A program made the position numbers. From Candidatus Hydrothermales bacterium (lineage in GTDB: Bacteria > Hydrothermota > Hydrothermia > Hydrothermales > JAJRUZ01): a stretch of 64,000 bases of DNA. The stretch lies in assembly GCA_039630575.1 (NCBI GenBank), contig JBCNUW010000005.1, positions 23,949 to 87,948 on the forward strand, given 5' to 3'. Positions 21,001-33,000 of the stretch are shown piece by piece (the stretch's first letter is position 1; every line of letters starts with the position of its first letter).

Positions 21001-24000
21001 AGCTTCAACTCCTGTAAAGGGGATTCGAACATAGTCAAAAGTTAAAAAAGAGAACAATAAAATTGATATGTTCATTTTTTAAAGAATAAAGTAAAACTAT
21101 TGAATTAATCAAGAAGGTAATTTATAATTAAAAGGAGGAATAATATATATGAAACTTTTATTTCTTTTTTTAGGTATTTCAAAATTAACTGTTAATTTTC
21201 ATACCGTGAGTTTTGATCCCCTAAAGGATAAAATCCCTTTGGTTTTTCCAGAGCTTGAAGGCTCTTATAAAAAGGGTATAAACTACATTTTGATTCAATT
21301 TAGGGAAATACCACTTCCACAGGAAAGAGAGATTTTCTCTTTTTCTTATGGAATAGAATTTACTCCCTGGTATATTCATGAAAACACTTTTATTGTTAAG
21401 ATTAATTCTCCAGAACCTGAGAAAAAGGTAAAGGAGCTTTCTTTATTAGAAAATGTTAGATGGGTTTCTCTTTATAAACCTCTTTATAAATTTACTTTTG
21501 AAGCCTTTGATTTATACTTACGGGAAAAAGATGTTAAGCACAGATTTTACGTCCATGTCTTTGACGTTTCTTATCTTGATGAGCTTGTTTTAATCTCTGA
21601 AAAACTTGGTGCAGAAATAGAATATGTTGATCATAGGAAAACTGAAGAGGAAAGACATCTTTGTTCTTTTGGTTTAAAAATAGAACCTTTTAAACTTTCA
21701 GAAATTGCTAATCACCCTGGAGTTTATGTAATTGGTAGAAATTATGATAAGATGACTTTTAACGATGCATCAAGATGGGTGATTCAAACAAATGTGAGTG
21801 TGGATACATCAATATGGAGAAGGGGAATACACGGTGAAAATGTTATTATTGGGCATAATGATGACGGACTTGATCCAAATCATTGTTTCTTTAATGGAAC
21901 TGTTCTTGGTCAGAACAAGATAGTCTATCTTTTTGATTATAATGGAGGAGGTTTTGCAAATGGTGCTCATGGAACCCATACAGCTGGTTCAGCCTGTGGC
22001 GGAACTGATCAACAGAGTTCAAATTTACAGTATAGAGGAATGGCTTACAAGGCTCGTCTTATTTCACAGGAACCTATTGGAGCAGTTCCTCCTGGTTTTT
22101 ACTCTATATTGATGGATGCCTATAATTTGGGTGCAAGAGTTCATACAAATTCTTGGGGCTATCAGTGTTTTGCATTATTAAATTATTGTGGGGCAGGTGG
22201 TTATGAGGGAGAGGCAATCGATATTGATAATTTTGTTTGGAATTACAATGACATGACAGTTCTCTTTGCTGCTGCAAATGGTGGTGATTGTGTTTCACCT
22301 TTTACTTGTGGAAATGGAAGGAGGATGTCTCGTCCAGCTACTGCAAAGAATGATATAACAGTGGTTGCGACTAGGAGAGCACCTAATCAAGAATATAAAG
22401 CTAATTGGAGTTCCTATGGAGCGCCTAGTAATCTTGGAGATAACCGCTTGGGCACAGATATTACAGCTCCTGGTGAGAATGTATATTCAGCTGATAACGA
22501 AACTGCATGTGCAGTTCTTACAATGTCAGGGACATCAATGGCTACACCCACAGCAGCAGGAGCAGCTGCTTTAGTTATACAGTACTTTAAAGAGGGTTTT
22601 TATGGAAATGGTACAAGAAATTCAGCACCTTCTCATAATCCTTCATCTGCTCTTGTTAGAGCAGTTCTGTTAGCATCAGCAAGAGATATGCAATATGATG
22701 TTGATAATAATGAAGGAGGACCAGCTAACTCAGGTGTTCCGAACATTTATGAGGGTGCAGGTAGGATAACGCTTGAGGATGCTCTTTGGTTTGGTGAGAC
22801 AAGGAAACTTTTATTTGTTGATGGTGATTTACCTGCAGGTGATAACCAGTTAACAACTGGTGATTCTATTTCTTATAGGGTTAATGTTTTAGGTAGTGAT
22901 TTTCCTTTAATTATAGTTCTTTCATGGATTGATTATTTTGGGAGTGCAAACACCTATCCTGTAATAGTGAATGATCTTGATCTTAAGGTAATAAGTCCAA
23001 CTGGTACGATTTATAGGGGGAATTATACTTCAGGTGGATGGTCTATTCCAGGTGGTTCCTTTGATAGGTTAAATTTATGGGAACTTTTTAAGCTTCAGAA
23101 TCCAGCAATAGGAGAATGGAGGATCGTAATAAGGGCTTATAGAATAACACAACCTAAGCCAGCAGGAACAAAATATCCCTTTGCTTTAGTTGTTACAGGG
23201 AATATAGGACAAATTCAAAAGCTTTCATCTGTGGAGAGTTTTTTTGCTTTATCTTCAACATCTGAGGGTGTTTTAATAACTTTCCATTATGGAGGTCTTG
23301 TGGATAGACTTTTAATATACAAAAAAGATGAGAGCGATTTTAAAATTATTTCTGAGAATAGTTTTGTGAGAACGCCTTTTAAGTATGTAGATAAAGATGT
23401 TAAGGAGGGTAAGGAATATGAGTATAAAGTTTTAGCGTTAACTTCTGAAGGAGTTTTTCATTATGGTCCTTTAAAGATAAAGTATGATTTTAAGTTTAAT
23501 TCTTTTGAACTTAGTACAAATATTACAGGTTCGAAGCTAAAAATTTTATTTACAACATTTTATAAGGATGAGATAGAGATAAATTTATATGATATAGGAG
23601 GAAAAAGAGTACAGAGATTGATGAACAAATTTCCTTTTGATAGGGGATTATACAGTATAGAGTTTGAATTAGGAGGTTATGGTATAAAACCTGGAATTTA
23701 TTTTTTAGAATTAAAGGGAAGAAAGATAAATAAGAGGGAGAAAGTGATTCTTTTTTAAACTTAAATTTTAAATTAAAAATAAATTTATACTTTTTATAGA
23801 TTTAGAACCTTTTAAATAGATAAAAAAAATATTAAAAAAAATTAATAAGGGATGCTAATTTTTTTTATAATAAACTTTAAAGGAGGTCTAAAAGATGGAA
23901 AAAATAAAAAAAGAGGATGAAGTTTTTTGGAGAACTCCTCTTGATTACAGAGAAATAAAAAGAACAAAGGGTAATGTGATAATTTTAGAAGACATTTGTA

Positions 24001-30000: not shown

Positions 30001-33000
30001 TATGCAGGTGCTGATCTTGCTGGTGTTTCAAGATTCCAATATCCTCCAAATGCGAGAATAATCAGATCAATGTGTTCCGCAAGAATCAAACCGGATTTTG
30101 TAATACATGCTTTAAGAAAAGGAGCAGGAGCAGTTTTGTGGTCAGGTTGCCATATAGGTGATTGTCATTACAACTTTGCGAATTTAAATGCTAAAAGAAG
30201 GTATGAAAATATGATGAAAAAACTTGAAAGACTCGGGATTAGAAAGGAAAGAGTGCAGCTTGACTGGTTCTCAGCTGCTGAGGGTATTCAGTTTGCAAAT
30301 AAGATGAAGGAGATGGCTGAAATTGTAAAGACTGTAACTCCCGAAGAAATTGAAAAAACAAAAGAGGCTTTATCTCAATTTAAAATTCCAGAAAAGTATA
30401 AAAAGTTTTTATCAACAATAAAGATGGAAGAAAAAGTTCTTGTCTAAAATTTCAAGGAGGATATTAAAGGGGGTAAAAGTTTAAAATTTTTTATAAATAA
30501 AATTACGTTTTACTTTTTTTAACTAAAAATTTTGGTTTTCTGGTTGAAATAAATATTGGTATTAGAATTAAAGAGGATAGAGAAGAAATAATCATAGTAA
30601 TAAAAGTTAAAATACCAAATCTTTTTATAATTATTAAATCCCCTAGAACTAAAACAAGTAGGCCTAACCCCACTGAGAGAGCATTTATAAAAACCGCTCT
30701 TCCTGTAGTTTTTAAAAGGTTTTCAAAGATATTATTGTTACCCATTTCTAATTCTTTTTTGATTCTGGAAATAACATGAATAGAGTAGTCTATACCTATA
30801 CCTATTATAATTGGAGCAATCATTACACTTGCTGCATCAAGAGGATAATTTAAAAATCCTAAAAGTCCGAAGTATATCAATGTCGTAAAAATTATTGGTA
30901 ACACTGTAATTAGTCCACCTGTTATTGATTTCCACTCAATTGAGACAAAAATGAATACTAAGATTAAAACCATTAAAAGACTTTGCATTTGACTTTTTAA
31001 GAGATTATCATCAAGTTTTTTGTAAATTTGAGGAACTCCGGTGTGATAAATCTTAAAATTAAAAATTTCTCCATCATCCTTAAATTCCTCTTCATAGGGG
31101 ATAATCCATTTTTCTCCTGTGAATTCATAAATATAATCTTTTATTTTTTTATCAAAATTTAAACTGTTTATAAACCCTAGTCTTTTGGACTCCTTTAAGA
31201 TTTCCTCCAGTTCTAAAGCTGCTTCCTCAATATCTTCCCTTTTATTTTTAAAATATTTTATTAGAACACCCTTTATATCATTTTCCTTTAGTATATCTCT
31301 AATAACTTTTTCCCTTAATTTTTTGTCTAAAATTACTATATAGGCTTCTTCACTTTTAAAATACTCCTCTAGCTTTCCAAATGATACTTCTTCTACATAT
31401 TTTTTGAATTTGCTTTCATCTGAATAAGAATAAAGAGTTTCGTAGATTTTTGTAGAGTCTTCTATGTTAAAAACTTCGCAAATTGTCTTAGTATAAAACT
31501 TTGTATATTTTTTAAAGACTTTCTCTCTTTTATTATGGTCCAAAGTGTTTTGGTCAATCATTAAATACTTACCTGAAAACCTTTTAACAACGCTTTCAAT
31601 GTAATCTGCTACTTCTCGAATTATTTTTGTTTTTCCAAGTTCTGAAACCATTTGAATTGTTGCCTTTTTACCATCTTTTCTTACTATCATATCTAATTGA
31701 GGCTGACCCTCTAAAAGAAAATAGAGGTTGTTTATTTTCTCCTCTGATTCAGGTATTGATTTAAAATCTGTGACAAGTTCATTCATTTCAGCAATTAAAT
31801 CTGCAATTGATTGAGGGTTATGTATATATTGAGATTTTTTTAGTAGATCACTTGTGTGTTTCATTAACTTTAAAATTAAGGGATTTTTAATATTATCAGC
31901 TTCAAAGACTACATAGGAAGATGCATGACCACCAAATTTATCTCTTACGAGTTCAGCAGATACCCTTACAGGATTATTACTGGGAAAATAAGCAATCATA
32001 TCAACTTCTCTTTTTATTTTTAAAATACCTAAAATACTAATAAAAAGAATTACAAAACATAATTTTGCAACTATGTTCTTATATTTTTTTATTAATTTAG
32101 AAATAAAAAAAAGTAATAAGGATGGTGGAAAAGTAAAATCTTTTATTAAGGAAATGTTTGATATATTATAAGAAAGAATAACAGGAATAAAAGTTAATGT
32201 TAGAATTAAAGCGAAAATAACACCTATACTTAAAAAAATTCCAAATTTTCTTATTACATCAAGTTGAGTAAATATAAGAGAAAGGAAACCAAAAAAAGTT
32301 GTAACTGCTGCCATAAAAATTGGAACCCACATATCTCTTACACTTTTCTTTATCCCATCATTTTCTTTTTCGTACTCTTTGTATTTGTTTAAAAGATGTA
32401 TTCCATAAGCAGAACCAACAGCTAAAAGAATAACTGGAAGAATATTAGATACTATCGATAATGGAACATTTAGAAATCCCATTAAACCAAGAACCCATGT
32501 TATAGAAATTATAACAACACTTATGATCAATAGAATTCCTTGAAAATTCTTAAAACTTAAAAATAATATCAGAGTAATTATAATTAATGAGTAAGGAATT
32601 AGCCTTATTATTTCTTTTCTTATCATTTCGTTAACAAATATAACTACAAAAGGAATCCCACTATAATGAATTTCAAAATTTTCTTTTAATTCTTCTGTAA
32701 TTTCCCTTATCTTTAATGCAGTTTTTTCTTTATCAGATTTTTCTGAAAATCTTATAATGATTGATGTATATTTTCCATCCTCTGAAACTATAACACCCTT
32801 ATATCTTTCCTTTGACATAACATAACTTTTTAAACTGTCATACTCCTCTTTTGCTTTTGGTATGTAATTGGGCGGTAGGAGTTTACCAACTTCTATTCCA
32901 TCCTCTATTTTTTTTATATCCATAATATCTGTTAGACTTAAACAATTTGAAATTCCCTCTATTTTTTTATATTCTTCTGTAAGTTCTTGAATTTTTTGGA

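Follow-up and report, generated by a model that had tools for sequence, protein, structure and literature searches.

A conserved operon joining genes for a predicted 2-oxoglutarate:ferredoxin oxidoreductase and an HdrA-MvhD-type heterodisulfide reductase in Candidatus Hydrothermales

Introduction

Electron-splitting flavoenzymes of the HdrA type are best known from methanogens, and the role of HdrABC in non-methanogens is an open question in which the low-potential partner and the disulfide mostly go unnamed. Four-subunit 2-oxoglutarate:ferredoxin oxidoreductases (Kor) are generally considered to work with free ferredoxin or flavodoxin. Among the described HdrA systems, HdrA2B2C2 of Methanosarcina acetivorans combines an HdrA-MvhD fusion bearing the MvhD cysteine motif with HdrB and HdrC, has no hydrogenase in the unit, and can pass low-potential electrons to a disulfide (PMC5296606). 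In the Mvh/Fdh-Hdr-Fmd(Fwd) supercomplexes of methanogens a low-potential, carbon-transforming enzyme is joined by a ferredoxin-type subunit to the inserted ferredoxin domain of HdrA (PMC13580544), a domain described as the low-potential exit (PMC13580544, PMC12054007). Further HdrA modules (viz. MvhADG-HdrABC, FlxABCD-HdrABC, HdrABC-MvhD-MetVF, and HdrL/type III HdrA) are likewise built on a modular HdrA core whose partners, as judged from gene clusters, can be exchanged, and the portions of these papers used here name no oxoacid oxidoreductase as a partner (PMC5736913, PMC12054007, PMC2702500). Our literature search, outside of which a relevant preprint and a review of HdrA(BC) modules fell, returned no description of a Kor-Hdr pairing.

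In the present work, we have analysed a window of 64,000 nucleotides from a Candidatus Hydrothermales bacterium (assembly GCA_039630575.1, contig JBCNUW010000005.1). The locus described here shares with HdrA2B2C2 the fusion, its cysteine motif, HdrB and HdrC, and likewise lacks a hydrogenase in the unit; it differs in that its hdr genes share an operon with korDABG, that its HdrB lacks the presumed substrate loop of methanogens, that the FrhB family was found in none of the five genomes searched for it, and that the host is a non-methanogenic bacterium. With the Hdr-Fmd(Fwd) supercomplexes it shares, according to our model, the attachment of such an enzyme to the inserted ferredoxin domain; here, however, that enzyme depends on TPP and is predicted to act on succinyl-CoA/2-oxoglutarate, a delta subunit with two clusters takes the place of the polyferredoxin as linker, and electrons probably flow in the oxidative direction. 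The locus offers a candidate low-potential partner together with a testable interface, and the seven genes of this hydrothermal lineage are the most compact form of the module found in this analysis.

Results

Gene content of the operon

Our analyses have identified seven intact and closely packed ORFs on the forward strand at positions 23895-30447, namely korDABG, hdrC, hdrB and an hdrA-mvhD fusion (Table 1). The ORFs together with Pfam, NCBIfam and PDB matches bear out the first-pass annotation, which had described a seven-gene operon for a four-subunit Kor of the 2-oxoglutarate type, a short HdrC, HdrB and an 821-aa HdrA-MvhD. Genes overlap by 4 nt at three junctions, among them the korG/hdrC border between the Kor and Hdr parts, the remaining three gaps are 13, 2 and 13 nt, and purine-rich runs resembling ribosome-binding sites lie upstream of the operon genes. 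A scan for promoters and terminators gave nothing exceeding shuffled sequences, and the TTAATA-18-TATAAT element upstream of korD is regarded as a candidate only, because promoter-like sites in the region before korD are fewer than in the shuffles (19 vs. a mean of 24.9).

Table 1. Features of the korDABG-hdrCB-hdrA/mvhD locus (all coordinates are window coordinates; aa, amino acids).
Feature	Position	Strand	Characteristics
AT-rich intergenic region before korD, probable promoter	23759..23894	+	
Sigma70-like TTAATA-18-TATAAT, candidate site	23842-23871	+	
korD, delta subunit, 95 aa	23895..24182	+	Two [4Fe-4S] motifs; N-terminal WRxPLD arm, residues 11-17
korA, alpha subunit, 385 aa	24179..25336	+	YPITP motif; NF006412 score 576 vs. 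cut-off 411
korB, beta subunit, 283 aa	25350..26201	+	TPP motif GDGD; three cluster cysteines; Arg64
korG, gamma subunit, 191 aa	26198..26773	+	Stop overlaps hdrC start by 4 nt
hdrC, short, 137 aa	26770..27183	+	Both [4Fe-4S] motifs intact
hdrB, 260 aa	27186..27968	+	Two CCG domains; ten cysteines and His
hdrA-mvhD fusion (HdrA2/type Ia), 821 aa	27982..30447	+	NF040770 score 1223 vs. cut-off 1100
HdrA inserted ferredoxin domain, approx. residues 243-320	28708..28941	+	Modelled KorD docking site
MvhD domain, residues 664-784	29971..30333	+	Exact CX2CX25CX24CX4C motif

The closest solved relatives of KorA are 1yd7 and the 2-oxoglutarate synthase alpha subunit 8ys5. Only the alpha subunit passes its curated cut-off; beta, gamma and delta score below theirs, the best family match of KorD being OGOR delta. 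The locus shares with known 2-oxoglutarate:ferredoxin oxidoreductases (1yd7 and 8ys5/8ys6, and the two-subunit 6n2n) the four-subunit form, the YPITP and GDGD motifs, the three-cysteine cluster motif, and a beta-subunit arginine: Arg64 of KorB aligns with Arg63 of 6n2n chain B, which we take to have a role in 2-oxoglutarate specificity, and this residue is kept in 74/74 KorB sequences scored. KorDABG is probably a 2-oxoglutarate:ferredoxin oxidoreductase. The WRxPLD arm of KorD lies outside the match to 8ys5 chain D.

The HdrA-MvhD protein has the characteristics of the HdrA2B2C2/type Ia class, viz. the MvhD fusion motif, the bifurcation residues, the Cys pair and the Fe-S ligands. Its fold matches 5odc_A, E366 and K418 of its FAD domain correspond to E356 and K409 of 5odc, and it carries the C198/C201 pair and a C-terminal ferredoxin domain. 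Both residue pairs are invariant in 33/33 aligned HdrA-MvhD fusions, and 96 of the 98 HdrA sequences compared retain the E/K bifurcation pair. The MvhD cysteines (C669, C672, C698, C723 and C728) fit exactly the motif given for the HdrA2 type (PMC5296606). No MvhAG or FdhAB genes occur in the operon, which thus lacks the group 3c hydrogenase of MvhADG-HdrABC, and in place of a formylmethanofuran dehydrogenase with polyferredoxin it encodes KorDABG with a two-cluster KorD.

The ligands of HdrB (C11, C43, C44, C80 and C83; C136, H137, C176, C177, C210 and C213) are also present in 20 related sequences; against two CX31-39CCX35-36CX2C motifs, the first fits and the second has X32 spacing. Its distal loop reads CCG(Y/L)P, replacing the CCGAGGGVR of methanogen HdrB, which is presumably substrate-binding, and HdrB scores 134 against a cut-off of 345 for the CoM-S-S-CoB-reducing equivalog TIGR03288. 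Its disulfide substrate is probably not CoM-S-S-CoB. No disulfide partner was identified: DsrC, considered as a candidate, was found in 2/5 genomes and not in this one. Bacillithiol was considered and found to be unsupported, the genome having one PIG-L deacetylase whose neighbour has no Pfam match.

Conservation within the class

An HdrA-MvhD orthologue (at least 73% identity) is present in 14 of the 61 class genomes searched. Its reported presence in all Hydrothermales was not reproduced in this sample: 9/11 genomes of this order have it, and two (93% and 67% complete; G108 and G163) gave no orthologue with this query. The gene order is kept as had been stated. All seven genes stand in order in 13 of these 14 genomes, and in the remaining one (G103) a contig end cuts the operon inside korG; of 7 metagenome loci, the 4 closest likewise have the complete order. 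All 14 KorA matches of at least 71% identity in the class sit in this operon; in the family designated f3, 7/8 genomes have KorA paralogues at 44-49% identity but no HdrA match. The separate hdrCBA-mvhDGA cluster of this genome lies on contig C15, and the independence of the operon from it was upheld; 3 of the 14 operon-bearing genomes have no MvhA match.

Linkage of Kor and Hdr genes in other lineages

Among the 80 closest KorA loci, 59 have an Hdr gene within 3 kb and 51 within 500 bp, and where both flanks reach 3 kb the proportion is 40/49. The loci are from Bathyarchaeia, Asgard archaea, Chloroflexota, Desulfobacterota and others; in other WOR-3 the linkage is seen at 15/20 loci. The linkage thus recurs across many anaerobic bacteria and archaea and is not restricted to the Hydrothermales, and it exceeds background: 20 control loci for pyruvate oxidoreductase (Por), drawn from 16 of these WOR-3 genomes, had no Hdr gene nearby on the same strand, and the six further loci for oxoacid oxidoreductases in the present genome showed none next to them either. 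Seven of the 80 KorA loci have long flanks without an Hdr gene, and these, with the f3 paralogues lacking HdrA, indicate that this type of Kor can work alone.

In the reciprocal test, within the class of a Bathyarchaeia record, 5 HdrA of at least 64% identity were followed by korD-korA in three cases and by korD only in one, the fifth being cut, and 25 HdrA at 51-62% had kor within 1.5 kb in a single case. A dedicated HdrA clade thus appears, from these comparisons, to travel with Kor. The KorA and HdrA trees are quick and midpoint-rooted, with no clade test, on a sample picked by Kor neighbourhood; duplicates (L071-L073 and L094) were dropped from the KorA tree and the motif count, and HdrA outside 550-890 aa or with fewer than 380 aligned residues from the HdrA tree.

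Hdr partners differ widely between lineages. MvhAG genes stand beside kor and hdr in 7/80 loci, and in 16 loci an HdrC-GltD fusion replaces HdrB, with Kor as the sole other catalytic unit in the cluster. For docking of an orphan MvhAG in trans, MvhA matches were found in 5/5 genomes of the HdrC-GltD type, but the six MvhA clusters inspected carry their own mvhD and hdrBC genes. A search with KorG gave 145 longer relatives, the best 120 of which include no fusion of Kor to Hdr and are nearly all beta-gamma fusions. The plasmid collection yielded one match at 48% and no sign of plasmid carriage.

Modelled contact between KorD and HdrA

In a complex model, KorD docks to the ferredoxin domain inserted in HdrA with a score of 0.71 (best control 0.00); the score mark is reached by 116/157 solved complexes and 2/215 mismatched pairs, a rough guide here, where our own alignments were used. 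The model runs share at least 80% of their contacts, with a partner pLDDT of at least 78. The modelled contacts on HdrA are 258-273, 297-306 and 346-382; residues 10-24, 44-47 and 72-76 of KorD lie against HdrA 258-306, and the model shows no confident KorD contacts to MvhD. The best PDB matches of KorD are MvhB and FwdF, and since both were solved bound to HdrA, the passing score may reflect memory of those structures. The WRxPLD arm is placed on HdrA, but it could instead bind the Kor core; its motif occurs in 66/91 Hdr-linked delta subunits (25 linked ones are without it) and in 7/18 unlinked ones, a count confounded by kinship. With KorD on the low-potential ferredoxin domain and not on MvhD, the model suggests that Kor most likely occupies the position that Fwd has in methanogens.

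Host metabolism and energetics

This genome encodes a glutamate dehydrogenase family protein, SucCD, membrane Sdh, citrate synthase, Nuo-like proteins, cytochrome bd, multiheme cytochromes, several peptidases and a free ferredoxin (C8:6898). Rnf was not found in it, and Rnf and [FeFe] hydrogenase were each found in 0/5 genomes. The potential of 2-oxoglutarate is taken as about -520 mV, and potentials for fumarate and a generic disulfide are likewise assumed in our calculations. Were 2-oxoglutarate the bifurcation input, balance would put the low branch at -0.7 to -0.9 V, and no acceptor at such a potential was identified in this genome; passing the -520 mV electrons straight to a disulfide would waste about 72 kJ per pair.

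Discussion

We tentatively interpret the operon as one redox module in which Kor is attached to the low-potential port of HdrA and electrons flow oxidatively, a reading to which we assign a probability of roughly 0.45. KorD would bind the inserted ferredoxin domain in the place of the polyferredoxins MvhB/FmdF that lead to Fwd/Fmd, so that Kor-Hdr may work, by this model, like the Hdr-Fwd/Fmd supercomplex. Kor and Hdr are probably one complex in the cell; the separation of HdrA2 from HdrB2C2 on gel filtration (PMC5296606) is counted against this. In a respiring peptide-user, glutamate would be converted via 2-oxoglutarate to succinyl-CoA and CO2, and low-potential electrons would pass from Kor through KorD to the FAD of HdrA. 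From there they could reach a disulfide, probably not CoM-S-S-CoB, through HdrC and HdrB, a ferredoxin:disulfide mode shown for HdrA2B2C2 (PMC5296606), or they could be joined by confurcation with electrons from a thiol to reduce a mid-potential acceptor on the MvhD/FAD side, which might be NAD+ or, if MvhAG is provided in trans, protons. The coupling of 2-oxoacid oxidation to Hdr proposed in the first-pass annotation is thus retained as functional and probably physical, and its proposal that 2-oxoacids are the electron input of a bifurcating Hdr is set aside, in view of the modelled position of KorD away from MvhD and of the potential that the low branch would need.

Co-regulation with diffusible ferredoxin, in which Kor reduces ferredoxin and an HdrA2-type ABC unit reoxidises it with no stable complex, would also account for the operon. 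HdrA2B2C2 accepts electrons from free ferredoxin (PMC5296606), the genome has such a ferredoxin, Hdr partners vary by lineage, and no Kor-Hdr fusion was seen among the relatives covered. We consider this unlikely, however, because a ferredoxin pool common to all these enzymes would not set Kor apart from the five other types of ferredoxin-linked oxoacid oxidoreductase here and the 20/20 Por loci, which are unlinked to Hdr; the HdrA clade that appears to travel with Kor and the modelled direct binding of KorD also argue against it. Quite unlikely, in our view, is the same wiring run in reverse, with HdrA bifurcating electrons of H2 or NADH to a disulfide (at HdrB) and to KorD, whose electrons would serve to carboxylate succinyl-CoA reductively to 2-oxoglutarate, in the way that Hdr powers the reduction of CO2 by Fwd. 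The docking model would be identical, the computed yield with H2 is -15 to -31 kJ per four electrons (-30 to -66 kJ with fumarate as the high-potential acceptor), TfrA/SdhAB-like genes lie inside the cluster in 6/80 related KorA loci, SucC/D nearby in 4 and MvhAG in 7, and two other alpha/beta oxidoreductases encoded here could take care of oxidation. For NADH with a disulfide, though, reverse flow is uphill (+5 to +21 kJ), 3/14 operon genomes have no MvhA match, the best match in this genome to the soluble TfrA/B-like pair is a distant one (32%), and its citrate synthase, membrane Sdh, glutamate dehydrogenase family gene and peptidases fit an oxidative TCA cycle; the flow in this heterotroph is probably oxidative.

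Kor could also replace the hydrogenase or formate dehydrogenase at MvhD, with HdrA bifurcating to a disulfide and a still lower-potential acceptor. An MvhD domain in an operon without MvhAG or FdhAB would fit, as would the 16 HdrC-GltD loci, and a preprint on class II benzoyl-CoA reductase appears to mention KGOR and HdrA often, so that ultra-low-potential chemistry fed by oxoacids may have a precedent. This we regard as very improbable: ferredoxin reduction by Kor needs no bifurcation, the low branch would balance only at -0.72 to -0.90 V, the model has no confident KorD-MvhD contact, and the MvhAG genes beside kor and hdr in 7/80 loci make a hydrogenase available for the MvhD input port.

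More tentative still than the oxidative reading of this operon is its extension to a widespread Kor-Hdr supercomplex that would tie the 2-oxoglutarate/succinyl-CoA step directly to flavin-based bifurcation or confurcation. Kor would always hold the low-potential port, and what is attached to the remaining ports would vary with the lineage. If true, a bifurcating enzyme would be wired to a central TCA step in Bathyarchaeia, Asgard archaea, Chloroflexota and WOR-3, and current views of how those abundant sediment lineages ferment amino acids and fix CO2 would change; if the gene linkage alone holds, it is still useful as an annotation rule. The other port would be a disulfide in WOR-3, including this operon, H2 through MvhAG in Asgard archaea, and NAD(P)(H) through the HdrC-GltD fusion, mostly in Bathyarchaeia, where NAD(P)H from glutamate dehydrogenase and electrons from Kor would balance H2 formation almost exactly. 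Where it would be fumarate/succinate through SdhAB-like subunits, a single machine would couple the two most difficult redox reactions of the TCA cycle.

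Organization and conservation of the kor-hdr operon

Our analyses of ORF layout, class genomes and GTDB contigs confirm and extend the seven-gene kor-hdr operon proposed in the first-pass annotation. Seven ORFs, from korD through hdrA-mvhD, fill the interval; korD/korA, korB/korG and korG/hdrC each overlap by 4 nt, whereas the other junctions leave gaps of 13, 2 and 13 nt. On the upstream side, 136 nt separate the operon from the end of a subtilase gene; a convergent MMPL gene lies 55 nt downstream. The GC content of the operon genes (0.29-0.37) is near the genome value (0.30), and the nearest HdrB relatives are named in their source as Ca. 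Hydrothermales, phylum WOR-3. Coordinates of the features discussed are collected in the table.

An HdrA orthologue (at least 73% identity) is present in 14 of 61 class genomes, including 9/11 within the order, and the complete gene order is retained in 13 of the 14, the remaining one ending at a contig end. All 14 KorA matches of at least 71% identity, from 13 genomes, lie within the operon; the next paralogues (44-50%) also occur in genomes without the HdrA match. MvhA was matched in 11 of the 14 operon-bearing genomes. The query used found no MvhA in the other three (G098, G156 and G158; 96, 94 and 88% complete), whose sole HdrA is of the operon type, and hence the Mvh hydrogenase appears not to be required by the Kor-Hdr module.

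A KorA scan of GTDB contigs recovered 561 relatives, of which the best 80 were analysed. In 59 of these 80 loci (3 being WOR-3 copies of the operon itself), the kor block has an Hdr gene on its own strand no more than 3 kb away. The distance is at most 500 bp in 51, and the 49 loci with both flanks of at least 3 kb include 40 linked ones; these and the following linkage figures are counts rather than tests, since related loci are not independent. The other 21 comprise nine short or cut loci, three with Hdr genes at 3.2-3.4 kb, two with a partial HdrA-like match below threshold, and seven lacking an Hdr gene despite long flanks. Record titles of the loci name Bathyarchaeia, four Asgard groups, Chloroflexota, Sysuimicrobiota, Bipolaricaulota, Thermotogae, Aminicenantes, Coatesbacteria, Desulfobacterota, Zixibacteria, Planctomycetota and others, and the link recurs in many separate KorA clades. 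Among 20 additional WOR-3 loci obtained from korG matches, 15 have Hdr within 3 kb, whereas 20 pyruvate oxidoreductase (Por) control loci, from 16 WOR-3 genomes bearing the Kor-Hdr cluster, show no Hdr linkage. Reciprocally, in the class of a Bathyarchaeia record (G174), within 1.5 kb, kor genes follow three of the five closest HdrA (one other has korD only and one is cut) and are present at 1 of the 25 next-closest. The retained gene order, and linkage of 59/80 against 0/20 for Por, support the proposed coupling of a 2-oxoacid oxidoreductase to Hdr. In a quick HdrA tree with rows sampled by Kor neighbourhood, the 18 rows of the operon subtype group together (support 100) beside a sister type that is Kor-linked and mostly bathyarchaeial (17 rows; support 98); the two then group with split HdrA from other Kor-linked clusters (99).

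The pairing is likely new to the literature. No description of it was found in term-matched passages of PMC5296606, PMC12542636, PMC12054007, 10.1101/2024.09.26.615249, PMC6085437, PMC7382037, PMC5736913, PMC7886697, PMC11237513, PMC10052474, PMC9012536, PMC9723716, PMC12590816, PMC13580544 and PMC2702500, whose gene-cluster supplements (e.g. Table S3, PMC12054007) could hold it. A WOR-3 survey gives korABCD and mvhADG-hdrABC as separate entries, and the preprint bioRxiv 10.64898/2026.04.10.717634 is indexed with 20 mentions of KGOR and 13 of HdrA.

Coordinates of the operon and related features
Feature	Location	Strand	Remarks
korDABG-hdrCB-hdrA-mvhD operon	window 23895-30447	+	
Glu/Leu/Phe/Val (glutamate) dehydrogenase family gene	window 12438-13691	+	10 kb upstream of operon
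MMPL/RND transporter, then PHB-accumulation-regulator-domain gene and two more genes	window 30503-35915	-	convergent on operon
hdrCBA-mvhDGA cluster	L153 (source genome G000, C15:19083-30611)		flanks, labelled by sequence reading: formate-tetrahydrofolate ligase-like, hydrogenase maturation, fumarase/aspartase-like genes
GltD-like gene in a second por operon	L151 1402-3066 (G000 C78:31401-33065)		delta place taken by 554-aa GltD-like protein with terminal ferredoxin motif; layout shared by G058, G073, G093, G098
Multiheme cytochrome genes	G000 C1:152042-162706, C3:835-4546, C4:43498-52508		three clusters; up to 18 CxxCH per protein
Second operon copy	L190 9332-12023 (G165:C110)		hdrA split over two frames; nearer family f2 than host genus; bin 8% contaminated
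HdrC-GltD fusion	L075 3726-5288; L082 4847-6289; L104 4800-6224		13 further loci
Tandem korA'-korB-korA-korB'	L051, L053, L054, L055, L056, L059, L061, L062		WOR-3, other classes
Soluble TfrA/SdhA-like and SdhB-like genes with hdrCB and kor	L053, L056, L062, L080, L095, L099, L111, L127, L135		sucCD also in some
Second, standard-length HdrA with one in-frame TGA	G058:C11, G073:C83, G103:C84, G122:C2, G161:C84		

Characteristics of the Kor and Hdr subunits

KorA scores above the NF006412 cut-off, and its nearest PDB relatives are 1yd7 and the 2-oxoglutarate synthase alpha subunit 8ys5. The TPP motif and three cluster cysteines are present in KorB, whose Arg64 aligns to Arg63 of 6n2n chain B, which we take to bind the distal carboxylate of 2-oxoglutarate. 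For KorB, KorG and KorD the top-scoring models are of the oxoglutarate or oxoacid type, yet the scores stay under the cut-offs. Decay in the eight tandem loci is complementary, the first alpha lacking the Thr of YPITP and the second beta the cluster cysteines and GDGD motif, which suggests a pseudo-symmetric oxidoreductase with a single active site. The por operon with a GltD-like delta possibly encodes an NAD(P)-linked oxoacid oxidoreductase.

HdrA-MvhD exceeds the HdrA2 model cut-off (1223 vs. 1100), and carries the MvhD motif as defined in the text of PMC5296606. E356 and K409, whose functional role is described in the text of PMC12054007, have their counterparts in its E366 and K418. The AlphaFold2 model of HdrA-MvhD (mean pLDDT 79, pTM 0.70) matches 5odc chain A. 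HdrB retains every cluster ligand; its second motif is shorter by three residues, and the methanogen loop CCGAGGGVR is CCG(Y/L)P in 21/21 rows of the subtype. HdrB scores 134 against the CoB-CoM model (cut-off 345). Judged from sequence, HdrB is probably active, but on a different disulfide. The in-frame TGA of the second HdrA likely encodes selenocysteine.

Probable position of Kor on HdrA and direction of the reaction

The operon represents a variant within the HdrA-module family, in which Kor probably occupies the low-potential port. Partners among the best 80 of 561 loci include HdrB (21), HdrD-like proteins (16), an HdrC-GltD fusion replacing HdrB (16), MvhAG (7), SdhAB/TfrA-like proteins (6) and SucC/D (4); in some WOR-3 clusters GltD is fused to MvhD or inserted in HdrA. 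In a three-port HdrA, a hydrogenase or NAD(P) module would dock at the MvhD side, and HdrB, HdrD, GltD or possibly SdhBA at the HdrC side. With these two ports variably filled and Kor as the constant partner, gene order would leave it the ferredoxin side. The inserted ferredoxin domain of HdrA is described as the ferredoxin reduction site (text of PMC12054007); the low-potential electron passes from HdrA via clusters HA5 and HA6 to MvhB, and pyruvate:ferredoxin oxidoreductase is named as no more than a possible acceptor from it (text of PMC13580544).

The modelled complex of HdrA-MvhD with KorD scored 0.71 (0.66, 0.75, 0.71; best control 0.00), the score mark being reached by 116/157 solved complexes and 2/215 mismatched pairs, a calibration that is rough with own alignments. 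Contact agreement between runs was at least 80% and partner pLDDT at least 78. Predicted contacts join HdrA 258-273, 297-306 and 346-382 to KorD 10-24, 44-47 and 72-76, with no MvhD residue among those named. The high score may be borrowed from solved complexes, since KorD is similar to MvhB and FwdF; the closest modelled contacts are made by the KorD N-terminal arm, outside the MvhB-aligned region (29-93). The arm motif occurs in 66/91 Hdr-linked versus 7/18 unlinked delta subunits, and the arm may equally bind the Kor core instead.

Thermodynamic estimates used potentials of -520 mV for 2-oxoglutarate, +33 mV for fumarate, -414 mV for H2 and -230 mV for a generic disulfide. Values for heterodisulfide (-145 mV) and ferredoxin (-500 mV) are from the text of PMC9012536, and that for NADH (-320 mV) from that of PMC5296606. 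On these potentials, 2-oxoglutarate as bifurcation input would place the balanced low branch at -0.72 to -0.90 V; together with predicted KorD contacts outside MvhD, this leaves the first-pass proposal of 2-oxoacids at the Hdr input port unsupported. With Kor on the low-potential port, the same potentials give -15 to -31 kJ for H2 driving disulfide reduction and carboxylation, and +5 to +21 kJ for NADH; the latter reaction is thus exergonic when run backwards, with Kor and thiol reducing NAD+. Carboxylation with fumarate reduction yields -30 kJ (NADH) or -66 kJ (H2), and H2 formation from Kor electrons and NAD(P)H lies at most 2 kJ from equilibrium, which fits the HdrC-GltD type.

The glutamate dehydrogenase family gene, SucCD, membrane Sdh, citrate synthase and respiratory genes (Nuo-like genes, cytochrome bd and multiheme cytochromes) of the source genome, together with the failure to find Rnf, COX1 or [FeFe] hydrogenase in this 95% complete assembly, favour 2-oxoglutarate oxidation by Kor; gene content is not decisive here, as two further alpha/beta oxoacid oxidoreductases are encoded. 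In other loci, mostly from Bathyarchaeia, HdrB is replaced beside hdrA-mvhD-korDABG by a fusion of HdrC with a GltD-like FAD/NAD(P) domain. In the loci with TfrA/SdhA-like and SdhB-like genes, the Hdr module may also serve a succinate/fumarate branch.
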